DNA of 64,000 bases. Origin: an uncultured Bacilli bacterium (GTDB lineage: Bacteria; Bacillota_I; Bacilli_A; RF39; UBA660). The stretch spans positions 10,394-74,393 of the forward strand of contig CANPXU010000003.1 of the NCBI GenBank assembly GCA_947586825.1, in the 5' to 3' direction. The notes under the pieces were generated by a model. That model saw nothing but the letters and a program-made list of their open reading frames with translations, was not told where the DNA came from and ran no database searches. This document shows, piece after piece, positions 4,847-32,981 of the stretch (positions are counted from its first letter, which is position 1; each line of letters starts with the position of its first letter). Position numbers and translations under genes: made by a program.

Positions 4847-5029
4847 TTATAAAACTAGTACTAAAATAGCTAAAGTTAATATGCCTGGAATACCAAAAAT
4901 AGTTACAAAAGCTACATTAATTATATTTATGGGTATCATAATATTTAAAGAAGATATCATTAAGTTTAAAGCATATAGCATAAGAATTGTAATAATTACT
5001 CGTTTTATTATAGTAAATACTTTTTCCAT
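4847..5029 (-). CDS. BofA-family small membrane protein (pro-sigma-K processing inhibitor-like)
   Basis: 60 aa with two TM segments. IPINIINVAFVTIFGIPGILTLAILV resembles my recollection of the B. subtilis BofA C-terminus (VPINLVTTAISGILGIPGIAALVVI). It sits downstream of recR, as bofA does in Bacillus. Confidence 0.55.
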   Translation of the reverse strand: MEKVFTIIKRVIITILMLYALNLMISSLNIMIPINIINVAFVTIFGIPGILTLAILVLVL

Positions 5030-5980: not shown

Positions 5981-7612
5981 TTATTTAACTTCTATTTTAC
6001 TATTTAAAAATATGTCTTCAACTATTTTTTTTGAATCGGCAGCTTTAGGTTCTTCCTTCATTTCATACTTTATGTTTTTAGCAAGATTATCTTTATACTC
6101 TTGCATATATTTTCCCCATGCTTCTTCACTTACCGCCGTTAATTTATACTTTTGATTAACATAGCTTTCTAATGCATCTTCAATATTAGTAATTATATCA
6201 TTAATATTATCAGCAGTAGCATCAATATCTGCCTTAATAACCCAATTAGTATCTGATGCTAGAACAATTGTAGTATCAATTAACAAAGCTCTCTCTTTTT
6301 TCATTTTTGCTAATTTTATAAACTTTTCCCAAACTTCCTTAGCATCTATTAAATAACTTTTGTTAGCATTTACGAAACAATTATTAACTCTAATGGCGCA
6401 AAGCTCTGTATTTACTTTTGGGAAATAATTTTCAGTATTCGAATCGTTTTTTTGAGCATCATCTACTGTCTCTTCTACTTCCTTTGTTATTTTTACATCA
6501 TTTCCCAAGGGTTTATCAAAATTATTAGTCACTTCTTGAGTGTCGCTTTTTCCGGCAGTTTCTATTTCCCGGGAAATATTTTTTGTAAATTTATCAGCGT
6601 AGTCTAGCAAGATTAATTCTAAATTCGTATATGGGTCGATATTAACATTGCATTTATATATTAAAGAAGATATCTCAAATGCCATTTCTTTTAAAGCTGC
6701 ATATTCAAGTGTCCCTTTATAATTATTCAACTTAATATCAACAGCAACCTTTTCAATTGCACGGATCAATTTTTTACAAAGAGTTTTAAAATCAGTTGAG
6801 TGGCTTTGAGCAAACTCAATGAAAGACAACACTTTATCAACATCATTATTGCCAATAGCATCTATTACATCATTTATTTCTTTGTTTGATATCAATCCCA
6901 AAGAATCTAGTACTACTTCTTGCGTTATTTTAACTTTATTTTTTGATAATTGATCTAAAATACTTAAGGCATCACGCATTCCGCCATCAGCAAAGTCTGC
7001 AATTTCAGTTAATGCGTCATCATCAATATCAATTGTTTCCTCTTTTGCTATTTTCCGCATATTATCAACAATGTCTTTATTACTTATTTTTTGAAAATCA
7101 AGGCGTTGGCATCGTGATAGTACGGTTATTGGTACATCCTCGATATCTGTAGTAGCTAAGATAAAAACGACGTGGCTTGGTGGTTCTTCAAGCGTTAATA
7201 GCAAAGCATTAAAAGCACTAGTACTTAGCATATGTACTTCATCAATTATATACACTTTATATTTAAAATTTGCAGGTGTTAGCTTTATATTATCTATGAT
7301 TTCTCTTACTTGATCAACACCATTGTTTGAAGCAGCATCTATCTCATAAATATCACTACTTTGCCCAAAATTAAGGCAATTTTCACACTTATTACATGGT
7401 TCTCCATCAACAGGATCTAGACAATTGATTGCCTTAGCAAATATCTTAGCAGTACTAGTTTTACCAGTTCCCCGCGGTCCAGTGAAAATATAAGCATGTG
7501 ATATTTTATTGTTTATTATGCTATCTTTTAAAAGTTCAATAGTTCTATTTTGTCCAACAACATCGTTAAAAGTTGAGGGTCTATATTTCCTGTATAATAC
7601 TTTGTAATTCAT
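5981..7612 (-). CDS. dnaX: DNA polymerase III tau/gamma subunit
   Basis: Motifs GPRGTGKTS, CNKCENC and IIDEVHML. The start is moved to the ATG at 7612, which is preceded by AAGGAGG. The ORF track starts at 7630. Confidence 0.95.
   Translation of the reverse strand: MNYKVLYRKYRPSTFNDVVGQNRTIELLKDSIINNKISHAYIFTGPRGTGKTSTAKIFAKAINCLDPVDGEPCNKCENCLNFGQSSDIYEIDAASNNGVDQVREIIDNIKLTPANFKYKVYIIDEVHMLSTSAFNALLLTLEEPPSHVVFILATTDIEDVPITVLSRCQRLDFQKISNKDIVDNMRKIAKEETIDIDDDALTEIADFADGGMRDALSILDQLSKNKVKITQEVVLDSLGLISNKEINDVIDAIGNNDVDKVLSFIEFAQSHSTDFKTLCKKLIRAIEKVAVDIKLNNYKGTLEYAALKEMAFEISSLIYKCNVNIDPYTNLELILLDYADKFTKNISREIETAGKSDTQEVTNNFDKPLGNDVKITKEVEETVDDAQKNDSNTENYFPKVNTELCAIRVNNCFVNANKSYLIDAKEVWEKFIKLAKMKKERALLIDTTIVLASDTNWVIKADIDATADNINDIITNIEDALESYVNQKYKLTAVSEEAWGKYMQEYKDNLAKNIKYEMKEEPKAADSKKIVEDIFLNSKIEVK
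6563..6578. promoter_or_regulatory. Perfect Noc-binding-site (NBS) palindrome TATTTCCCGGGAAATA inside dnaX
   Basis: Exact match to the published B. subtilis NBS consensus ATTTCCCGGGAAAT, including the flanking T/A. I noticed CCCGGG only four times in this AT-rich window. Confidence 0.6.
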
Positions 7613-8202: not shown

Positions 8203-8218
8203 TGTTTCACGTGAAACA
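8203..8218. promoter_or_regulatory. parS centromere-like site 1 (TGTTTCACGTGAAACA)
   Basis: Perfect 16-bp palindrome matching the Firmicute parS consensus TGTTNCACGTGAAACA. The palindrome extends to 20 bp (8201-8220). Confidence 0.75.
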
Positions 8219-8303: not shown

Positions 8304-8319
8304 TGTTTCACGTGAAACA
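8304..8319. promoter_or_regulatory. parS centromere-like site 2 (TGTTTCACGTGAAACA)
   Basis: Second identical 16-bp palindrome, 101 bp from the first. It extends to 18 bp (8303-8320). Confidence 0.75.
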
Positions 8320-11168: not shown

Positions 11169-13085
11169 CTATATATCTAGATTTTCAGTAAATTGGGCAT
11201 TTTCTTGAATAAATTTAGTACGTGGTTCTACAGCTTCACCCATTAATTGACTAAATATTTCATCAGCAGCCATTAAATCATCTACTGTTATCTTTCTAAG
11301 AATTCTCTTATTAATATCCATTGTTGTATCATTTAATTCTTCAGGATCCATTTCACCTAGACCTTTCATACGCATTACATCTGGTTTAATATTTGGAGGT
11401 AAAGAAGCTAAATATGCATCTTTCTCATCAACATCTAGTACGTATTTAATCGTTTTTCCATGCTTTATACAAAATAAAGGTGGTTGGGCGGCATATACAT
11501 GTCCTGTTTCTACAATCGGTCTAAAAAAGCGGTAAAAAAGCGTCAGAAGAAGTACTCTAATATGTTCACCATCGACATCGGCATCGGTCATGATAATGAT
11601 TTTGTCATATCTTAGTTTATCTAGATTAAATTCTTGGCCTATGCCAGTACCAAAAGCTGTTATGATTGTCCTTATTTCATCATTATCTAAAGCTCTATCA
11701 AGTCTAGCTTTTTCAACATTTAGGATTTTTCCTTTTAAAGGTAAAATTGCTTGGGTCATTGAGTCTCTACCTTTGATGGCAGAACCACCTGCTGAATCAC
11801 CCTCGACGATAAAGATTTCGCATTCACTAGGATCTTTTACCTTACAATCGACTAGTTTTCCACCAAAATCAATTACATCTAAGTCGGTTTTTCTTCTTGT
11901 AGTTTCTCTAGCCTTCTTGGCAGCAATTCTGGCTCTCGATGCCAAAAGCGTTTTATCAATAATAGTTCTTGCTTCTTGAGGATGTTCTAGTAAATATCTT
12001 TCTAGGCCTTCGCCAAAGACATCCGAAGCTATTTTTCTAACTTCAATATTACCAAGTTTAGTCTTGGTTTGTCCTTCGAATTGAGGATCTGGATGCTTAC
12101 AAGAAATAATCATTGTAAGACCTTCTCTTACGTCATCTCCCGTTAGACTATCATCATTTTCCTTAAGTATTTTAGCCTTTTTGGCATAGTTATTGATAAT
12201 TCTTGTTAAAGCTTGTTTTACACCATCTTCATGCATTCCACCTTCATAGGTATTGATATTGTTAGTAAAGGAATATATCGCTGAATTATAAGATTCATTG
12301 TATTGCATAGCGACTTCAATAGATATATCATCTTCTACACCATTTACGTAGATAATATCTTCATGAAGAGGTTTTTTATCTTTATTAAGCATTTCAACAT
12401 ATTCAATAATACCACCATTATAAAGGAATGTTTCGTGTTTATCCTCTACTCTTTCATCTATTAATTGAATACGAAGACCTTTATTTAAGAAAGCAAGTTC
12501 TTGTAATCTTTTCTTTAAAATATCATAATCAAAGATTGTTGTTTCCGTAAATATTTCTGGATCAGGCAAAAAAGTTACGGTTGTTCCCGTTCTGTCTTTG
12601 GCACATTCTTCAATTACTTTCATTGGAGCAACCGGAGTTCCACCATTTTCAAATCTTTGATAATGGACTTCACCTTCACGATAAACTCTTACTTCAAGCC
12701 ATTTAGATAAGGCATTAACAACGGAAGCACCAACACCATGAAGACCACCAGAAACCTTGTAGCCTCCACCACCAAATTTTCCACCGGCATGAAGTACTGT
12801 AAAGATTGTTTCAATGGTTGAAAGCCCTGTTTTGGCGTTTATTCCTGTAGGCATTCCCCGTCCATCATCTTTAACAGATACGGAATTATCTTTATGAATC
12901 TCTACTTCAATGTCATCACAATATCCCGCTAAAGCTTCATCTACGGCATTATCAACAATTTCCCACACTAAATGGTGAAGACCTTTGCTACTAGTAGTAC
13001 CAATGTACATACCAGGTCTTTTACGAACTGCTTCTAGCCCTTCTAATACTTGAATATCACTATCTGAATAATGTTCTTCATTCAT
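11169..13085 (-). CDS. gyrB: DNA gyrase subunit B
   Basis: 638 aa. GHKL ATPase N-terminus, Toprim EGDSAGG and [10 protein letters not shown]. Confidence 0.97.
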
Positions 13086-14178
13086 TGTTATTCACCCTCT
13101 CTACTTTGTCATTCTTAACTAGATAAATACTGCTATTTTCAAGTAAACTTTTATCTATATTATCTATATCAGTACTTGTAATAAATGTTTGAACTTCTTT
13201 ATTAAGCATCTTAATAATATTGTTTATTTTCGCATTGTCTAACTCCGAAAATAAATCATCTAATATTAATATTGGGTACTCATCTTTAAGTTCCTTTATA
13301 ATAATAAGTTCTGCTAGTTTAAATGATATAATGGCATTTTTTTGTTGCCCTACACTACCATAATCTCTTATCGGATTTCCATCCAAGATAAACTCGATAT
13401 CATCATGATGAATACCCGACAATGTTTTACCCATTTCTCTTTCTTTATAGTATCTTTTTTGATAACTTTCAAATATCTCTTTTTCAGTTTTATCATTAAA
13501 TGAGCTATGGTATATTACCTGTAAATTCCCATATTCAAAGATATTTTCATATATTTTTGCTATATTCTCATTAATCTTATCAATGTAAGTTTTACGGTAT
13601 TCATTTATTTTTTTACCTATACTAACTAGCTTACTGGTTAAGACATCTAGATAATCTTTAGATGCATTCCCATTTAAATATAGCTGTTTAAGATAAGCAT
13701 TACGATTTCTTAATACCTTTTCATAAGAATTAAGTAATAATAGATACTCTTTATTTCCTTGAGAAATATCGATATTAATAAGTTTTCGGCGAAAAGATGG
13801 GGAATCATTAATTATCTTTGTATCTAAGGGATTAAATAAAACTATATTGATATTAGATACATAATCACTAATTTTTCCTACTTTATCAGAATTTATATAT
13901 ACTTTCTTTCCTTCTTCAGAAAGATCTATCTGATATCTTGTCTTTTCGTTTGAGATTATCTCCCCTTTTATTTCTGCTAAAGAAGCACCTTTTTTTATTA
14001 AATTAATATCACTGCCTGTTCTAAAAGATTTAGTTAAAGCCAGTAAATATATGGCTTCGATCACATTGGATTTACCACTGCCATTACTGCCATAAATAAT
14101 GTTTAATGTACTTGAAAAAGAAACGTCTAATGATTCATAATTTCTAAAGTTGGTAAGTTTTAATTTTTCAATATACAT
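13078..14178 (-). CDS. recF: DNA replication and repair protein RecF
   Basis: Walker [10 protein letters not shown], 366 aa. Overlaps the gyrB start. Confidence 0.93.
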
Positions 14179-14280
14179 CTCTAAACCTCTTTTTTGGCCT
14201 CAATTTTTAATATTTAATATTTTGTGTACTCCTCTACACCTATTAATTATATCATATTTAAGAAGCAAAAAAAAGCAAAA

Positions 14281-19951: not shown

Positions 19952-20656
19952 TTATTTTTCCATTTCGGAAAAATCTTTTACTGTTTTTGGATCAGGTTCT
20001 TTTAAGAAAATAATCTTTTGAACTTTAGAGGAAGAATTACCAGCTTCATCAACAACAGTATATTGAATCCAGTATTGCGGAATATCGCTATCTACAGGAT
20101 CTTCCTCATAGAATACTTCGTGAGATACTTGACAATATTTTTGCTTAGGATTCTTTTCTTTGGCTTTTTTATAGTTCTTTTTGGCTATTAATTCACAGTT
20201 AGAGTCATCTTTTACCGTTAAATGATCATAGTTAATAGAGCTTAAATCCTCGAAATTTATCTCATTGGTTTCAAATGATATTTTAGGATTTCCATAGTCA
20301 GCTTCATAGTCTTCTTCACCTTCGCCTTCAGGGTTATTCATTTCTTTAACATAGCGATTATTTCGGCCTGTAGCTATCCAACCATAGTTACCATTTTGGA
20401 GTTTTATATAGTACCAAACATATCTATTATCCTTTAAATCAATATCTAAAACGTTATATATTTGACCTTTTCTTACTTCACCAACTTTATTACTATATAA
20501 TGATGCTTCCTCTCGGACATTGATTTCATCAATTAGAATTTCTATTTTGAAAGCCCGTGAATCTTGCCATTTTTTATAACCAAAGTATCCACCAACGCCA
20601 AGAATAGCCACTAATAAAATGATTAAAAACCAAGGTATTTTCTTTTTCTTCTTCAT
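19952..20656 (-). CDS. Membrane-anchored protein with an SH3b-like domain and a C-terminal Ig-like (DUF5011-like) region
   Basis: The start is moved to the ATG at 20656 (MKKKKKIPWFLIILLVAILG, AAGGTG RBS). The SH3b pattern is GQIYNVLD...RYVWYYIKLQNGNYGWI. The C-terminal YTVVDEAGNSSSKVQKIIF resembles Ig-like DUF5011 ends. Confidence 0.5.
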   Translation of the reverse strand: MKKKKKIPWFLIILLVAILGVGGYFGYKKWQDSRAFKIEILIDEINVREEASLYSNKVGEVRKGQIYNVLDIDLKDNRYVWYYIKLQNGNYGWIATGRNNRYVKEMNNPEGEGEEDYEADYGNPKISFETNEINFEDLSSINYDHLTVKDDSNCELIAKKNYKKAKEKNPKQKYCQVSHEVFYEEDPVDSDIPQYWIQYTVVDEAGNSSSKVQKIIFLKEPDPKTVKDFSEMEK

Positions 20657-20736
20657 ATGCACCTTACTACTTTTTACAAGAAGAATTATATCATAGGATA
20701 TATGAAAATACAAATGTAGAAAATTTGGCATATGTA

Positions 20737-22122: not shown

Positions 22123-23997
22123 ATGAAATACGATATCATAGTAGTAGGGGCAGGCCATGCGGGATGTGAAGCTGCTCATATAAGTGCCTTTATGGGCCAT
22201 AAAACACTATTAATAACTTCAAATATAAATAATCTTGCTGATATGCCTTGTAATCCTTCTATCGGAGGTAGTGCTAAGGGAATTATCGTAAGGGAAATCG
22301 ATGCTTTAGGCGGTCTTATGGGAAAAGTCGCCGATCGTTCACATTTTCAAATAAAGATGCTTAATAACTCTAAAGGCCCTGCGGTTAGATCGCTTAGAGC
22401 CCAAGCTGATAAAAGAGTTTACCCTAAAGTAATGCGTAAATACCTAGATGAAACACCGAACCTTGAGATAAAAGAAGGCATGGTAGAAAACCTTATAATC
22501 GATGCTGGTAAAATAAAGGGTATTATTCTTGAAGATGGCACCAAGATAAGTAGTGATGCTGTAATTTTAACAACGGGAACTTATTTAAATGCTAATATAT
22601 TGATAGGTAGTGAGAATACTCCAAGTGGACCTCATGGGGAGAAAAGAAGTAATAACTTATCTTTTAAACTTAAGGAACTAGGCTTTAATATTAAAAGATT
22701 AAAAACAGGAACACCCCAAAGAATTAAGGCAGATAGTATAGATTTTGCTAAGTTAAAACCTGAGCTTGGTGATGATACTTATTGGACTTTTTCTTTTGAT
22801 AATGGCCCTTTATATGATAAAAATGAACAACAAAAGTGTTATTTAGTTTATACAAATGAAAAGACTCATCAAATAATTAGAGACAATCTTAAGAAAAGTG
22901 CAATGTATGGTGGATATGCTACAGGAGTAGGACCAAGATATTGTCCTTCCATCGAGGATAAAATAGTTAGATTTGCCGATAAAGAAAGACATCAATTATT
23001 CTTAGAACCAGAAAGTATCTATTATGATGAGTGGTACTTACAAGGCTTTTCAACATCAATGCCAAGAGATGTTCAAGAAGAAATGGTGCATTCTTTGGAA
23101 GGCTTAGAACATGCCGTAATAGAAAAATATGCTTATGCTATTGAGTATGATGCGATAGATCCTTTGCAAATTAAACCATCACTTGAATCTAAAATCGTAG
23201 AAAATTTATTTACGGCAGGCCAAATAAATGGTACGTCAGGTTATGAAGAGGCTGCTGGTCAAGGCTTAATCGCAGGTATTAATGCTTCTCTAAAACTAGA
23301 TAATAAAGAACCATTAATATTAAAAAGATCTGATGCTTATATTGGCGTTTTAATTGATGATTTAGTTATCAAGGGTATTACTGATCCATATCGTATGCTT
23401 ACTTCAAGAGCAGAATTTAGGCTTTTACTTCGCCATGATAATGCGGATATTAGACTTACACCCCTTGCTTATGAAAAAGGTGCTGTAACTGAAGAAAAAT
23501 ATCAAAGATTAAGAAACAAATTAGATAATATCGAGAAGTTAAAGAATCTATTAAAAGAAAGCCATTTAAAGCTAACAAACGAAGTAATTGATGTATTAAA
23601 AGAAAATAATATATCTGTTCCTGCAGGTAATTATAGTTATGCGATATTATTAAAACGCCCAGAATTTACAATGGATTTAATTCAAAAATTTATTGATTTA
23701 AATGATTTTGATGAAGACGTAAAAAATCAAGTAGAAATAGAGTATAAGTATGAAGGTTATATTCAAAATGCTATGAAAGAAAAACTAAAGCTTGAAAAGA
23801 TGGAAGAAAAGAAAATACCAAGTGATATAGACTATAGCAAAGTCCAAAACATGGCTAGTGAAGCTAAGCAAAAGCTTAGCTTAGTAAAACCACTTACTAT
23901 TGCCCAAGCCTCCCGTATCAGTGGTGTTAATCCAACCGATATTAATATCTTGCTAATATATTTAAAAAAAGAGTATGGTAAAAATGAAGATAGATGA
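22123..23997 (+). CDS. mnmG: tRNA uridine 5-carboxymethylaminomethyl modification enzyme MnmG
   Basis: FAD motif VVGAGHAGCEA. About 625 aa. The start is moved to the ATG at 22123. Confidence 0.95.
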   Translation: MKYDIIVVGAGHAGCEAAHISAFMGHKTLLITSNINNLADMPCNPSIGGSAKGIIVREIDALGGLMGKVADRSHFQIKMLNNSKGPAVRSLRAQADKRVYPKVMRKYLDETPNLEIKEGMVENLIIDAGKIKGIILEDGTKISSDAVILTTGTYLNANILIGSENTPSGPHGEKRSNNLSFKLKELGFNIKRLKTGTPQRIKADSIDFAKLKPELGDDTYWTFSFDNGPLYDKNEQQKCYLVYTNEKTHQIIRDNLKKSAMYGGYATGVGPRYCPSIEDKIVRFADKERHQLFLEPESIYYDEWYLQGFSTSMPRDVQEEMVHSLEGLEHAVIEKYAYAIEYDAIDPLQIKPSLESKIVENLFTAGQINGTSGYEEAAGQGLIAGINASLKLDNKEPLILKRSDAYIGVLIDDLVIKGITDPYRMLTSRAEFRLLLRHDNADIRLTPLAYEKGAVTEEKYQRLRNKLDNIEKLKNLLKESHLKLTNEVIDVLKENNISVPAGNYSYAILLKRPEFTMDLIQKFIDLNDFDEDVKNQVEIEYKYEGYIQNAMKEKLKLEKMEEKKIPSDIDYSKVQNMASEAKQKLSLVKPLTIAQASRISGVNPTDINILLIYLKKEYGKNEDR

Positions 23998-24688
23998 ATT
24001 TAGAAAAAAAGTCCAAGAACTTGGCGTAAATATAACAAAGCAACAAGAAGATATGCTAGAAAAATATTATGATCATTTAAAAGAATATAATGAGCATACT
24101 AATCTAACAGCAATTACGGAAAAAGAGGATGTTTATTTAAAACACTTTTATGATAGTCTTACAGTTGTTAAAGCTATCAAGCTTGATAATCAGTCTTTAA
24201 TTGATGTTGGAACCGGTGCAGGCTTTCCAGGTCTTGTTTTAAAAATAATGTTTCCCAATCTTAAAATAACTCTACTTGATAGTAACAACAAAAAAACAGC
24301 ATTTCTTCGGGAAATGATTGCGACGTTAAATTTACAAGACATAGAAGTAGTAAATTCCCGGGCAGAAGACTATGCAAAGCAAAATTTTGGGAAATATGAC
24401 ATATGTGTATCAAGAGCAGTAGCTTTTATTGATATCATAAGTTCTTTAACTCTTCCTTTAATAAAAGAGGATGGGGTAGTGGTTCTTATGAAAGGTAATT
24501 TTATAAATGAACAAAAAGTATTAGATGAACATCAAAAAGATTTAGGAATAAAAAAATATAACATAGTTAGTTTTACACTGCCAAACCTAGAAGATGAACG
24601 AAATCTAGTGGTTTTGAAAAGAGAAAAAGATATTAAAATACTTGAATATAATTCTATTGCCAAAAGACATAAAAAATGGAGCTTATAA
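23975..24688 (+). CDS. rsmG: 16S rRNA m7G527 methyltransferase RsmG
   Basis: SAM motif DVGTGAGFPG. mnmG-rsmG synteny. The start could instead be 23984. Confidence 0.93.
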   Translation: MVKMKIDEFRKKVQELGVNITKQQEDMLEKYYDHLKEYNEHTNLTAITEKEDVYLKHFYDSLTVVKAIKLDNQSLIDVGTGAGFPGLVLKIMFPNLKITLLDSNNKKTAFLREMIATLNLQDIEVVNSRAEDYAKQNFGKYDICVSRAVAFIDIISSLTLPLIKEDGVVVLMKGNFINEQKVLDEHQKDLGIKKYNIVSFTLPNLEDERNLVVLKREKDIKILEYNSIAKRHKKWSL

Positions 24689-24698
24689 TAACGTGATT

Positions 24699-24726
24699 TT
24701 TTCCCGGGAAATATTCCGGGTTTTTT
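24699..24726. terminator. rsmG terminator hairpin (CCCGGGA-AATA-TTCCGGG + T6) whose 5' arm forms an NBS-like palindrome TTTTCCCGGGAAAT
   Basis: The stem-loop spans 24703-24720 and is followed by TTTTTT. Positions 24699-24712 match 13 of 14 positions of ATTTCCCGGGAAAT. Split half-sites ATTTCCC (24727) and GGGAAAT (24750) follow. Confidence 0.6.
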
Positions 24727-24829
24727 ATTTCCCACCCAAAATTTCTTATGGGAAATGACATAATTTAATTGCAAAATGTATAATTTTAAGTTATTATAAA
24801 TATGATAGTAGAAAAAGGGGCTCGAAGTA

Positions 24830-26362
24830 ATGAATTTTGATTCTAGTGTTTTACAAGTTGCTGTCGAAGATATAATACCCAATCGTTTTCAACCACGATT
24901 GGTTTTTGAGGATAATTCTTTACAAGAGCTATCTGATTCAATAAAACAGCATGGTATTATTCAACCACTTGTTCTTAGAAAAGTCGGAGATAAATACGAG
25001 ATTATTGCTGGTGAAAGAAGATATAAAGCGGCTACTATGGCGGGATTAGCTTCCGTTCCTGCCGTTATATCTCAAGCTGATGATAAAACAAGTGCGGAGG
25101 CTGCAGTCGTGGAAAATGTTCAAAGAAAAGATTTATCTGCTATAGAGGAAGCTAGATCATACAAAGCTTTATTAGATCAAGGCTATATGTCTCAAGATCA
25201 ATTAGCTAGAAAAATGGGGTTATCTCAAAGTGCTATATCTAATAAGCTTAGACTTTTAACTTTACCTGAAGAAATTCAACAAGCCGTTATGGAAAGTAGA
25301 ATTTCTGAAAGACACGCTAGAAGTTTACTAAAAATTAAAGATACTGATGAGCAATTATCTCTTATGAATAGGGTAATTAAAGAAAGATTAACAGTAAGAC
25401 AACTTGACGATATTATTAAAGAAGCTCATCCAAATGGAGTTCAAAATATTAATATTGAAGAAGTAAGAGAAAAATCAGAAGATATAAAAACTCCTGAAGT
25501 TGAAGCTCCAATTGAAGAAGTAAAAGAGCCAGATCCATTTACAAAAGGAGCTATTAACTTAGGTCAAAGACAACAAAATAGATTCTTTAACACCTTAGAA
25601 GCTGAGGCTGCTAATATGCAAATGACGGAAGCTATAAACCCTTTTGATGGTTTTGAAAATAATGATTCTCCTTTTGCAAATACTACTAGTGTTGATACCC
25701 AAGTTAATAAAGCTGAAAAAATTGAAGAACAAAAAAATATTCAATTTTCTTCCACATCAGAACAAGTTTTGGGTGGACCTGTTGAGGTTAAGGATGTTCC
25801 AGATAAAGAGGATGATACAAGTAGTGATAATGCATCAGGCTCAGCAATGGATTTAACACCTGCTCAACTTTCGAGCGAACCTCAAGATATATATTCTAAA
25901 GATAATATGATTAATGCTGGTGTAAGTGCAACAGATATACCAAGAATAGATAATAATGTGCCCATAAAACCAAAGAGTGATCCTGTAAATTCATTCTCAG
26001 CTATCTTTAAGGGAGCAACGCCATCTGATGATACTGATGATTCACCAGTACCAAGTAGTAAGGAGCCAGAAGTTGTGAATAATAATGATACTATATTCCA
26101 AGAACCTCAAGGAATGGAGAAAGTAGAACCTACAGATTTAATTGTTGAACCTCAAGCTCCTAAGGCACCAGATGAAGAAATAGAAATGTTAGATACTTTA
26201 GATTTTGAACCACCCAAGAAAGAGGTTGATGTTACACCAGCGTTAGATAAGATTAATTCAGTAATAAGTGAGTTAAAGAGTCAAAACCTTCCAATAGATT
26301 TTGTTAAAACTGATTTGGTAGATCAAGTAACATTTACCATAACCATAAAAAAAGAAATATAA
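24830..26362 (+). CDS. noc: ParB-family protein, Noc-like, with a long disordered insert
   Basis: The ParB N-domain has IIPNRFQPR and GERRYKAA. The HTH region is SQSAISNKLRLLTLP...ISERHARSL, and the C-terminus is QVTFTITIKKEI. From memory these resemble B. subtilis Noc (IVPNRFQPR; GQSTIANKLRLLKLP; ITERHARAL; QLTIRIPK) more than Spo0J. It lies directly after rsmG, as noc does. Confidence 0.7.
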   Translation: MNFDSSVLQVAVEDIIPNRFQPRLVFEDNSLQELSDSIKQHGIIQPLVLRKVGDKYEIIAGERRYKAATMAGLASVPAVISQADDKTSAEAAVVENVQRKDLSAIEEARSYKALLDQGYMSQDQLARKMGLSQSAISNKLRLLTLPEEIQQAVMESRISERHARSLLKIKDTDEQLSLMNRVIKERLTVRQLDDIIKEAHPNGVQNINIEEVREKSEDIKTPEVEAPIEEVKEPDPFTKGAINLGQRQQNRFFNTLEAEAANMQMTEAINPFDGFENNDSPFANTTSVDTQVNKAEKIEEQKNIQFSSTSEQVLGGPVEVKDVPDKEDDTSSDNASGSAMDLTPAQLSSEPQDIYSKDNMINAGVSATDIPRIDNNVPIKPKSDPVNSFSAIFKGATPSDDTDDSPVPSSKEPEVVNNNDTIFQEPQGMEKVEPTDLIVEPQAPKAPDEEIEMLDTLDFEPPKKEVDVTPALDKINSVISELKSQNLPIDFVKTDLVDQVTFTITIKKEI

Positions 26363-26383
26363 AAAAGTCTCATCACGAGGCTT
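26363..26383. terminator. Shared hairpin between the convergent noc-like and PBP genes
   Basis: AGTCTC-ATCAC-GAGGCT, flanked by an A-run and a T-run. Confidence 0.45.
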
Positions 26384-28324
26384 TTATTTTTGCTCTTTTT
26401 CAATAGTTTCTATATTATATGCTGGTTCACTTCCTCTAAAATAATAAAACATATTCATCTTTTCACTATCTGTTGTAGGAGTTCCATCCACAGCATTAAG
26501 GGGCATTCCTACAACATTATCGGGCATTTCATACCAACTATGATCTTCAGGGTCGTATTTTTCTATTGCCTCTACCCATGCATTTTTAGCTTCAAGACCG
26601 GTTGTAACGGGAAGGCCAGAATTATCATCATATCCTGTCCAGGTAATCATTAATATATTAGGATTATAACCAACTACCCAATAATCGGTATCGGTAGTTC
26701 CGGTTTTAACAGAATATTTTCTACTGAGCTTTGATGCAACATTAATACCTGTGGGAACATTATAATCAATAAAAGCTGATTTAACAGGGCTTGTTAATAA
26801 CTCATTTAAAATATATACGTAATTAGGATTTAAAACCATATCATAATCCGGCTCATATTCATACAAAATATTACCAAATTCATCTTCGACTCTTGAAACA
26901 AAATGAATATTACGGCGATAACCTCCACTTGCTAAAGTAGTATATCCTGTAGCATAATCAATCAAATTTATTTCACTTGTTCCAAGGGCTAAGGAAGCAA
27001 CAGGTTTAAGTTCTTCTTCAATACCACATAATTTAGCGGTTTTAATAAGTTCATCAACGCCTAAAAAAAGATTCGTTTTAACCGCATATATATTATCAGA
27101 ATATGCAATTGCCGCAGCCATTGTTATTTCTTTGTTGCCATACACATCGGCATAATTCTTGGGAGAATATGTATTACCATCGCCAAGATTAAAGGTTGTT
27201 TCTTGTGATAAAAAAGTAGATGATGAAGTCATATTGTTAGCAAGAGCTGAATAATAAAGAAAAGGTTTCATAGTAGATCCAACTTGTCTTTTTGAATATA
27301 AGGCTCTATTGTACTGACTAAGTTTATAGTCTCTGCCTCCTATTAAGGCAAGAACAGATCCATCTTTAGGATCAATAGCTATACCTGAATTTTGAATATT
27401 ATCATCAGTTATATTATTATCTACACTTTCTTCCATAGCTTTTTGCAGATCAAAATCAAGCGTAGTATATACTTTTAAATTGCCAGAGTAGATTTGCTCT
27501 TCACTAATTGTTTCAATATCTTCAAGCTCTTTTTTTACTGCTTGTTGATAATACATTAAAGTCTTTAAGTCATTTTCTGAGTATGAAGCATATATATTAA
27601 TGTTTTCTTTAAACAAAGAATTATATTGATCTTCAGTTATCTTATTATTTTTATACATAGTTAAAGCAACTATCTTAGCTCTTTTTATAGCATTATCATA
27701 ACTACTTACCGGATTATAGTTGCTAGGGCTTTTAGGAATGCCTGCAAGTATTAAACACTCTTCAAGATTAAGATCTATAGGTTCTTTATTAAAATAGTAA
27801 TGGGCAGCATCATATACTCCATAGCATCCTTGTCCATAATTAATGGTATTAAGATAGGCTTCCAAGATTTCATCTTTTTCATAGTGCACTTCAAGATTAA
27901 GAGTCATAAGAGCTTCTTTAATCTTTCTTGACCACGTTTTATCAAACTCTAAATAAGCATTTTTAACGTATTGTTGGGATATCGTGCTGGCACCCTCCAT
28001 AATGTGACCACTTTTGATATTAGTAAACATTGCTTTGATAATACGTAAGTAATCAAAGCCATTATGATTATAAAAATTTTTATCTTCAACAGAGATGACA
28101 GCATCTATCATATATGGAGAAATATCTTTTAAAGAAACCCATTTACTTTTGGCACTACCTTGATAAATTAAATCATCGTTTTTATCATATAGACTATAAG
28201 TTCCTATAAAATTAAGTTTGATAGGATCAGATAAATAGGCATTTGAATAAAGGGCTATTATTATAGTCACAACACATAGAAAAGAAAAAATGCCTATTTT
28301 AGTTAACATTTTAAAGATTTTCAA
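26384..28324 (-). CDS. Class A penicillin-binding protein (glycosyltransferase GT51 + transpeptidase)
   Basis: GT51 motifs EDKNFYNHNGFD and GASTISQQ. Transpeptidase motifs STMK, SDN and KTGT. N-terminal TM anchor. Confidence 0.9.
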   Translation of the reverse strand: MKIFKMLTKIGIFSFLCVVTIIIALYSNAYLSDPIKLNFIGTYSLYDKNDDLIYQGSAKSKWVSLKDISPYMIDAVISVEDKNFYNHNGFDYLRIIKAMFTNIKSGHIMEGASTISQQYVKNAYLEFDKTWSRKIKEALMTLNLEVHYEKDEILEAYLNTINYGQGCYGVYDAAHYYFNKEPIDLNLEECLILAGIPKSPSNYNPVSSYDNAIKRAKIVALTMYKNNKITEDQYNSLFKENINIYASYSENDLKTLMYYQQAVKKELEDIETISEEQIYSGNLKVYTTLDFDLQKAMEESVDNNITDDNIQNSGIAIDPKDGSVLALIGGRDYKLSQYNRALYSKRQVGSTMKPFLYYSALANNMTSSSTFLSQETTFNLGDGNTYSPKNYADVYGNKEITMAAAIAYSDNIYAVKTNLFLGVDELIKTAKLCGIEEELKPVASLALGTSEINLIDYATGYTTLASGGYRRNIHFVSRVEDEFGNILYEYEPDYDMVLNPNYVYILNELLTSPVKSAFIDYNVPTGINVASKLSRKYSVKTGTTDTDYWVVGYNPNILMITWTGYDDNSGLPVTTGLEAKNAWVEAIEKYDPEDHSWYEMPDNVVGMPLNAVDGTPTTDSEKMNMFYYFRGSEPAYNIETIEKEQK

Positions 28325-32468: not shown

Positions 32469-32981
32469 ATGAAAAAGACTATAGTATTTTTATTTGGTAT
32501 TATGGTAATAGCATTAATGATAAATATGCAAAAAAAGGAAACAGTAGTTATTCCTAAAGAAAGTATCCGATTTAGGTTAATAGCTAACTCAAATAGTATT
32601 GAAGATCAAAGATTTAAAATGAAACTAAATAGTATTATCCTTCCTATGATTCAAGGGATAGCAGATGAGTCAAACACTATAAGTGAAACCAGGATAAATC
32701 TAAAAAAAGCTCTTCCTAGCATAAGTAAAAAGATTAGTGAATATACAGATGATTTTAATATATCATTAGGTAATAATTTTTTTCCTGAAAAAGTATATAA
32801 AAATGTAACTTATAATGCGGGAGATTATGAATCACTTGTCATTACTTTAGGTGAAGGTAAAGGGGATAATTGGTGGTGTGTAATGTTTCCTCCTTTATGC
32901 CTTCTTGAGGCTAAAGAAAGTGATGTAGATGATGTAACATACACAACCTATATTAAAAAAATCATAAATAAATATCTTTAA
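32469..32981 (+). CDS. spoIIR: Stage II sporulation protein R
   Basis: Signal anchor, then IRFRLIANSNSIEDQ and GEGKGDNWWCVMFPPLC, which are characteristic SpoIIR blocks. Confidence 0.8.
   Translation: MKKTIVFLFGIMVIALMINMQKKETVVIPKESIRFRLIANSNSIEDQRFKMKLNSIILPMIQGIADESNTISETRINLKKALPSISKKISEYTDDFNISLGNNFFPEKVYKNVTYNAGDYESLVITLGEGKGDNWWCVMFPPLCLLEAKESDVDDVTYTTYIKKIINKYL

Follow-up and report, generated by a model that had tools for sequence, protein, structure and literature searches.

Noc is, to our knowledge, known almost only from Bacillus and Staphylococcus, in which an N-terminal membrane helix makes it a nucleoid occlusion factor, and in Staphylococcus aureus noc lies beside rsmG, with parB elsewhere and no known parA. 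The reference structures used here were those of Noc from B. subtilis and Geobacillus thermoleovorans (PDB 7OL9, 7NFU, 7NG0 and 6Y93) and of Spo0J (PDB 6SDK). The subject of this work is the sole ParB-family gene (24830..26362, + strand, 510 amino acids (aa)) in a 64-kb stretch of contig CANPXU010000003.1 from an uncultured Bacilli bacterium. This stretch, hereafter the window, comes from around the replication origin of an AT-rich bacterium (29% G+C). We consider it probable that the gene encodes an atypical Noc orthologue which reads the Noc-binding site (NBS), and that the parS sites of the same genome are read by a displaced Spo0J.

Residue numbers in the DNA-reading region (173, 179, 184, 201 and so on) are given throughout in Caulobacter numbering. 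At these four positions ParB has R173, T179, A184 and G201, and Noc has Q173, K179, K184 and R201 (Jalal et al. 2020, PMC7383237). Q173 reads adenine 1 and R201 reads cytosine 6 of the NBS, while a lysine at 179 or 184 is permissive, a single one being enough (PMC7383237). The parS readers R173 and G201 show absolute conservation in ParB, position 184 is almost invariably lysine in Noc, and the dual-specificity variants of a deep mutational scan mostly carried T or S at 201 (PMC7383237). K171 is a further DNA contact, conserved over some 1,800 ParB and 400 Noc sequences (PMC7383237). Noc without its N-terminal membrane-targeting helix neither binds liposomes nor occludes division (PMC8429893). 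In the Streptococcaceae a dislocated origin (ORI) gene cluster has been described, in which parB is separated and parA lost (PMC8136486).

Identity of the lone ParB-family gene

The gene follows mnmE-mnmG-rsmG (rsmG at 23975-24688), and a convergent class A penicillin-binding protein (PBP) gene (26384-28324, - strand) lies 21 bp past its open reading frame (ORF). A preliminary description of this DNA, made from the sequence alone, had reported a single ParB-family gene after rsmG with a convergent PBP gene next, and the ORF map and tblastn agree with this: searches with Soj, Spo0J and Noc recovered no ParA/Soj and no second ParB across the 64-kb window. The absence of soj-spo0J from its canonical place, also reported there, is true of the window and of a whole monophyletic clade, and the peptide SQSAISNKLRLLTLP...ISERHARSL quoted for the protein is present in the translation. 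The nearest public sequence, at 99% identity, comes from a rabbit-gut metagenome-assembled genome deposited as 'uncultured Bacilli bacterium' (CANRMZ01).

Among GTDB genomes, relatives whose protein is 51-55% identical to that of the window have the contiguous order rsmG, noc-like gene, soj, spo0J, and relatives at 56-99% identity carry a noc-like gene without an adjacent soj-spo0J (hereafter lone-noc). The window protein pairs with the noc-like copy of the soj-spo0J-bearing relatives and not with their Spo0J. A neighbour-joining tree, a check that had been proposed in the preliminary description, places the protein with Noc and not inside Spo0J/ParB: the noc-like proteins and the Noc proteins of B. 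subtilis and Geobacillus fall together in 137/200 bootstraps, the Spo0J copies of the relatives join B. subtilis Spo0J in 188/200, and the lone-noc proteins are monophyletic in 198/200. Judged from the synteny in relatives and from the grouping with their noc-like copy, as well as from the ORF, Pfam and NCBIfam Noc model results given below, the lone gene is a noc orthologue. It belongs to a divergent noc subfamily of uncultured AT-rich gut Bacilli.

Pfam searches assigned the protein to ParB_N (PF02195, 109.6 bits) and HTH_ParB (PF17762, 113.9 bits), and the NCBIfam Noc model TIGR04285 scored it at 263.3 bits, against 179 bits for the generic parB model. With the long linker of the protein deleted, the TIGR04285 score was 273.1 bits, in an end-to-end alignment covering model positions 2-255. 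The canonical noc-like proteins of the relatives scored 296-302 bits, which is also below the curated cut-off of 315 bits, and B. subtilis Noc scored 373 bits. The best PDB matches of the window protein were Noc chains. Overall similarity and the NCBIfam Noc model were both dropped as classifiers, since neither tells Noc from Spo0J in this group. All noc-like proteins of the group fall below 315 bits on TIGR04285, so that annotation pipelines name them 'ParB/RepB/Spo0J family partition protein'; with a cut-off that all members miss, and a true Spo0J at 250 bits, the noc-like subfamily is invisible in annotations.

DNA-reading residues

The recognition region of the protein, GLSQSAISNKLRLLTLPEEIQQAVMESRISERHARSL (25220..25330, + strand), aligns with Q173, K179, T184 and R201, and with a leucine at the conserved K171. 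It thus has three of the four Noc residues, comprising both base readers and one permissive lysine, and it carries Q and R in place of the R173 and G201 of ParB. The earlier statement that this region is closer to Noc than to Spo0J is borne out by these residues. When the four specificity positions were scored, as had also been proposed, Q173, K179 and R201 came out as Noc-type, and the K184 of Noc was found to be replaced by threonine. From this Spo0J-like threonine the preliminary description had concluded that the protein is a hybrid, a view which our results do not support. Position 184 is permissive rather than specificity-switching, and T, N, S or Q occupies it in every noc-like protein of the group, including those encoded beside a normal soj-spo0J. 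Because Thr184 is also found in noc-like proteins adjoining a normal Spo0J, it is uninformative on dual specificity and is, on this distribution, a lineage trait. The combinations QKTR, QKNR, QKSR and QKAR have no entries in the supplementary data of PMC7383237, and the NBS preference of QKAR-type variants was taken by elimination from the text of that paper.

Elsewhere in the lone-noc clade the interface varies. In protein P0107 (L046, 10001-10894) the recognition helix reads GIPVSVLEGKLKLL, with Q173V, N178G and S172P, in a 297-aa protein whose gene context is the same. Further sublineages carry E, T, A, L or P at 173, a natural drift of the Noc DNA interface.

parS and NBS sites

As reported before, the window holds two perfect parS sites (TGTTTCACGTGAAACA), which lie between the signal recognition particle (SRP) RNA gene and gyrA at 8203..8218 and 8304..8319. 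Shuffled sequences gave on average 0.08 matches with at most two mismatches, and four matches were reached in 0/100 shuffles. Both sites are kept in two sister species, which were fetched by look-up with an identical L34 protein. In another lone-noc genus (L052), reached by searching with GyrA and by look-ups, the corresponding gyrA-SRP place likewise holds two perfect parS sites. The spacing within the pair is 101 bp in the window, 25 bp in L036, 46 bp in L037 and 39 bp in L052, and the surrounding sequence has diverged among the sister species to the point of being unalignable while the pair has been kept. The suggestion that the parS sites might be orphaned is contradicted by this pair, whose position is shared by three species and an additional genus across a diverged spacer.

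A perfect 16-bp NBS, TATTTCCCGGGAAATA, which the preliminary description had missed, lies inside dnaX (6563..6578, 14-bp core 6564-6577). There it encodes the peptide NISRE by way of two rare codons, TCC, which makes up 5.4% of the Ser codons, and CGG, which makes up 2.3% of the Arg codons. In the L052 genus an NBS lies again in dnaX (14174-14189) and encodes the same NISRE peptide, in the variable DnaX linker and at a non-aligned position. The recurrence of a NISRE site at non-homologous dnaX spots, in rare codons, indicates that selection acts on the DNA motif and not on the peptide. Perfect 16-mers of the NBS consensus ATTTCCCGGGAAAT were found in the window and in L009, L052, L050 and L053, with L052 holding three NBS of which two are perfect. 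When G+C-containing palindromes were ranked by enrichment in 236 kb of clade DNA, the parS core came first (5 observed, 0.0002 expected) and the NBS second (2 observed, 0.0011 expected). A scan in which both variable positions were left free gave no mixed parS/NBS sites, only the pure types. Two strict site classes without intermediates favour two dedicated readers over one promiscuous protein. Judged by their conservation, both parS and NBS are functional.

Three further observations concern palindromes at related loci. The gyrA-SRP RNA spacer of a related lineage of very high abundance extends over 1.4 kb (L050 12696-13733, L053 12630-13552). It contains 6-7 parS sites (0-2 mismatches) and after them two NBS that each form part of a longer repeated unit, so that the centromere array and the Noc sites occupy one spacer. 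In L009 a parS-like palindrome with two mismatches, AGTTTCACTTGAAACA, lies exactly at the noc/PBP junction (11176-11191); it may have persisted as a relic or may serve as a bidirectional terminator. The loci of the canonical relatives (L013-L032) contain two copies of the palindrome TTCCCAACGTTGGGAA, far above expectation.

Probable displacement of soj-spo0J

The rearrangement junction is the 21 bp between the noc stop and the convergent PBP stop (26363..26383), where canonical relatives continue with soj-spo0J. What comes after noc is, throughout the lone-noc clade, PBP(-)-argS-rpoE-prfA-prmC-spoIIR-mntP and, in the canonical relatives, soj-spo0J-mscS-abgT-ychF, none of which lies within the window.

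Scanning metagenomes with aligned Spo0J sequences from the relatives produced 80 loci. The canonical arrangement was seen in 23 of the 80, and 22 have a soj-spo0J-mscS-(DUF951)-abgT-ychF block away from noc. Longer detached loci obtained by look-up (L134-L146) show that the block runs on into rpsF-ssb-rpsR-rplI-dnaB. The detached soj-spo0J block sits either after tilS-ftsH, a placement that an inversion across oriC would produce, or after cdaA-ybbR-rplM-rpsI. In L075 (375-10876) and L079 one strand carries mntP-spoIIR-noc-rsmG-mnmG-mnmE-jag-yidC-rnpA, while soj-spo0J lies divergently on the opposite strand, at the usual place of dnaA; L072 has the same order with noc beyond the locus end. The noc-like protein of the L075/L079 lineage branches as sister to the window's clade (94/100 bootstraps), which gives a case of noc and soj-spo0J on one contig in non-adjacent positions, and the Spo0J of this lineage groups with the detached-type Spo0J proteins.

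A look-up with pth extended the window species by 7 kb leftward, into metG, tatD and rsmA, with no soj or spo0J in the added sequence. A homologue search with detached-type Spo0J proteins retrieved almost only near-identical copies from a single species of high abundance, Clostridium sp. CAG:433, and no match extending to the window's clade. Since rpsF, ssb, rpsR, rplI and dnaB are indispensable to bacteria, the block was most probably moved and not deleted in the window's genome, and soj-spo0J most probably travelled along. Judging from the relatives, we infer that soj-spo0J likely lies elsewhere in this genome.

Architecture of the protein

Residues 1-200 (24830..25429, + strand) make up the CTP-binding N-terminal domain and the helix-turn-helix (HTH) DNA-binding domain, as delimited by PDB alignments and by an AlphaFold2 prediction built with 61 homologues (predicted local distance difference test (pLDDT) about 85-95). 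An acidic, Pro/Asn/Ser-rich disordered linker of about 260 aa follows (25430..26221, + strand), with pLDDT <50 and low occupancy and identity in the family alignment; residues ~200-465 are predicted without secondary structure. The protein ends in a C-terminal dimerisation-type domain of one helix and two strands (26222..26359, + strand), which is supported by the alignment to the Noc model and by a pLDDT of 87-95, the helix being predicted at 469-484 and the strands at 489-495 and 500-506. The CTP motifs GERR and ENxQR are invariant across the 61 homologues (G61, E62, R63, R64, E95, N96, Q98 and R99). Having ParB_N, the CTP motifs, HTH_ParB and the C-terminal dimerisation domain, the protein is, by sequence, a member of the CTP-clamp type of the ParB/Noc superfamily.

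PDB alignments place residues 6-7 of the window protein opposite residues 28-29 of B. subtilis Noc, and an earlier start codon is impossible as the frame is open only from 24812. From this alignment start and the lack of a start codon further 5', it follows that the membrane-targeting helix (10 residues) and helix alpha2 are absent and that the protein begins at the equivalent of Noc residue ~29. None of the noc-like proteins in the wider group has the membrane helix. At the N-terminus the window protein has MNFDSSVLQV, versus KRRALGRGLEELF in the Spo0J proteins of the relatives, and the ParA-stimulating peptide is therefore missing.

The linker has a net charge of -33 and a variable length, homologues ranging from 297 to 516 aa in total, and it holds two motifs that are at least 90% conserved. 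One is NRFFNxLExEAxNM (residues 250-263), in which F252, F253, N254, L256, E257, N262 and M263 are each at least 90% conserved, and which lies in a longer segment of residues 241-272 (..NRFFNTLEAEAANM..; 25550..25645, + strand) delimited by conservation and hydrophobic moment. The other is LDFxPP (residues 457-462), present here as LDFEPP in a short segment of residues 455-462 (26192..26215, + strand) just 5' of the C-terminal domain, with L457, D458 and P462 at least 90% conserved. Segment 241-272 has the highest helical hydrophobic moment of the linker (0.67 versus 0.43 for residues 1-11 of B. subtilis Noc), and AlphaFold2 predicts no helix in it. This amphipathic motif may have taken over membrane or partner binding, a speculative idea that draws solely on conservation and hydrophobic moment, given that AlphaFold2 folds no helix there.

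Elements upstream of noc

The 13/14 NBS-like site TTTTCCCGGGAAAT (24699..24712) shares sequence with the intrinsic terminator of rsmG, a hairpin of the form CCCGGGA-AATA-TTCCGGG with a T-run (24703..24720, + strand), the overlap taking in the 5' arm and the loop. Further on there is an inverted repeat, ATTTCCC (24727-24733)-N16-GGGAAAT (24750-24756), spanning 24727..24756, whose arms are invariant and whose spacer is variable in three species. The preliminary description had pointed out both, namely an NBS-like site doubling as the rsmG terminator stem and the split half-sites, and both are present. In sister species the position of the 13/14 site holds the 12/14 forms ATTTCCCAGGAAAA, TTTTCCTGGGAAAT and TTTTCCTGAGAAAT, in which the CCCGGG core is lost. 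The site thus appears to be mainly the rsmG terminator stem, and an autoregulatory operator here was set aside in view of the terminator overlap and of the 12/14 match and non-palindromic centre in sister species.

The inverted repeat ends about 12 bp 5' of a conserved -35-like TTGCAA, which belongs to a candidate noc promoter, TTGCAA-17-TATTAT (24769..24797, + strand), with a consensus match and a -35 region kept across much of the clade. An alternative promoter, ATGACA-18-TATAAT (24755..24784, + strand), also matches the consensus. The repeat may act as an operator or may form a hairpin in the RNA.

Weighing the explanations

The account that we favour, and hold to be probably correct, is as follows. 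The window protein would be a CTP-dependent DNA clamp, as are Noc and ParB, and would load at the 16-bp NBS, with Gln173 reading base 1, Arg201 reading base 6 and Lys179 licensing the interaction; we infer this NBS binding from the residue pattern described above. It would not read parS. An old rearrangement with its breakpoint directly after noc would have split the ORI gene cluster, and a Spo0J encoded at another place in the genome would serve the conserved parS pair beside gyrA. Of these elements, the data show that the gene is orthologous to noc, that it has the residue pattern given above, that parS and NBS sites are both conserved and that the breakpoint lies after noc. Speculatively, the conserved amphipathic linker motif may replace membrane or partner binding.

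Several observations weigh against this account. The window protein stays below the curated cut-off of TIGR04285 (263.3 vs 315 bits), and a genuine Spo0J obtains 250.6 bits on that model. Searches with phmmer against PDB chains gave 184.5 bits for Geobacillus Noc, 177.0 for B. subtilis Noc and 176.8 for B. subtilis Spo0J, tblastn with B. subtilis queries gave 184 bits for Noc and Spo0J alike, and the 68% bootstrap for joining Noc is moderate. The K184 that is almost invariant in Noc is absent, each of the 120 closest database homologues has L, I or V in place of K171, and some lone-noc sublineages are without Q173 and N178, such that DNA reading in the clade may have changed. In the window species, the sequence between about -26 kb (L147) and +46 kb relative to oriC yielded no Soj or Spo0J. 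Lastly, classical nucleoid occlusion by the protein is not expected as the helix is missing (PMC8429893). The near-equal bits for Noc and Spo0J, together with the public naming of the homologues as 'ParB/RepB/Spo0J family partition protein', would fit an ordinary chromosomal Spo0J/ParB that binds the parS pair and has been mislabelled as Noc-like. We nevertheless find this very unlikely: Q replaces the invariant R at 173 and R replaces G at 201, the N-terminal LGRGL-type peptide present on the Spo0J proteins of the relatives is lacking, the protein falls in the tree with the noc-like paralogue from relatives which have a Spo0J too, and its place directly after rsmG is the noc place. That the parS sites are orphaned relics without a reader seems extremely improbable; the window indeed shows no ParB with parS-type residues, but perfect 16-mers and same-location pairs in three other species, set in unalignable spacers, need selection to persist.

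A reading which deserves more attention, though we still deem it unlikely, is that Spo0J has truly been lost and that the window protein, as the sole ParB-family protein, loads at both site types, NBS and parS, or has an altered interface by which it loads at parS, and takes over origin organisation and SMC loading. It would explain why about 72 kb around oriC of the window species is free of Spo0J/Soj while parS pairs are clearly kept. It would also suit the clade-unique change of K171 to L, I or V, which coincides with the lost soj-spo0J adjacency, the resemblance to a plain ParB clamp of a protein without the membrane helix, and the occurrence of parS arrays and NBS pairs in one 1.4-kb spacer of a related lineage. 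Against it, Q173 and R201 are NBS-specific, and dual variants mostly have T or S at 201 (PMC7383237). The two site classes are strict and without intermediates, soj-spo0J is kept elsewhere in related lineages, the sister lineage included, and rpsF, ssb, rpsR, rplI and dnaB must exist in the genome, so that the block would have been moved rather than deleted. The preliminary description had left it as an open question whether one protein serves both site types; the Q173/R201 readers and the lack of mixed sites speak against it, and Thr184, which also occurs beside a normal Spo0J, does not support it. It is also conceivable, if quite improbable, that the protein is a Noc derivative with drifting or lost specificity, a CTP clamp that lacks specificity or has a different target, or one acting through its linker motifs, with the NBS sites relics or weakly bound. 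The loss of both K171 and K184, the V, E, T, A or P at 173 and G at 178 of sublineages with the same gene context (as in the 'GIPVSVLEGKLKLL' of P0107), and the sparseness of NBS sites in the sampled loci point that way, but the window's own branch retains Q173, N178, K179 and R201, and perfect 16-bp NBS persist across genera and are written in rare codons. Finally, that a large clade of uncultured gut Bacilli runs its origin with a single Noc-derived CTP clamp, deprived of the membrane helix and altered at the DNA contact K171, which serves parS and NBS, or that the linker motif is a new internal membrane or partner anchor, is rather doubtful in our judgement; if true, either would be a natural re-merging or re-wiring of the ParB/Noc duplicate pair. 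The window gene is most likely a variant of the known Noc system rather than a two-in-one protein.

Other features of the window

On the minus strand the window reads mfd-pth-...-holB-bofA-recR-ybaB-dnaX-tadA-SRP RNA-gyrA-gyrB-recF-comK-like-dnaN-dnaA, and on the plus strand rpmH-rnpA-yidC-jag-mnmE-mnmG-rsmG. The comK-like gene, which encodes a 149-aa ComK-domain protein (PF06338; 14281-14730, - strand), lies between dnaN and recF within the origin gene cluster and is kept there in every relative fetched (L036-L053); the matching position in B. subtilis is occupied by yaaA. A gene for an SH3-domain membrane protein (19952-20731, - strand) lies on the opposite strand between jag and mnmE and is found in the closest species only. 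Sporulation-type genes are present, with spoIIR at 32469-32981 and bofA at 4847-5029 of the window and a spoVT-like gene at 7476-7979 of L147. This lineage with spoIIR, bofA and a spoVT-like gene has relatives deposited as 'uncultured Mycoplasma sp.' or 'Tenericutes'.

Comparison with known systems

The subfamily is widespread and abundant in gut metagenomes, with more than 120 database clusters, all annotated 'ParB family partition protein'. It has kept the NBS readers and real NBS sites, is without the membrane helix, K184 and K171, and has acquired a long disordered linker in which short motifs are conserved. This raises the question of how NBS-bound DNA is coupled to the membrane or the divisome without the known anchor and, given the loss of Q173 and N178 in sublineages, of how far the ParB/Noc DNA interface drifts in nature. 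It also corrects an over-reading, in that Thr184 and a missing soj-spo0J do not indicate a dual-specificity protein.

Like Noc, the window protein is encoded directly after rsmG, combines ParB_N, an HTH and a small C-terminal dimerisation domain, and has GERR and ENxQR along with Q173, K179 and R201, in a genome with the same 16-bp NBS consensus. Unlike Noc, it has neither a membrane-targeting helix at its N-terminus nor helix alpha2, has T for K184 and L for the conserved K171, and falls below the NCBIfam cut-off (263 vs 315 bits). Its acidic linker of about 260 aa with conserved motifs contrasts with about 20 residues in Noc, and soj-spo0J is not adjacent to its gene. With Firmicutes Spo0J/ParB (PDB 6SDK) it shares the fold, the CTP-clamp architecture, the lack of a membrane helix and perfect parS sites near oriC, but it does not have R173, G201, the N-terminal ParA-interacting peptide or an adjacent Soj, and its relatives own a separate, clearly orthologous Spo0J. 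As in the Streptococcaceae and S. aureus, the ancestral Firmicute cluster dnaA-recF-dnaN / jag-gidA-gidB-noc-parA-parB is broken and leaves noc or parB alone. Unlike in those groups, the break described here occurs in uncultured AT-rich gut Bacilli, and its breakpoint lies exactly between noc and soj.

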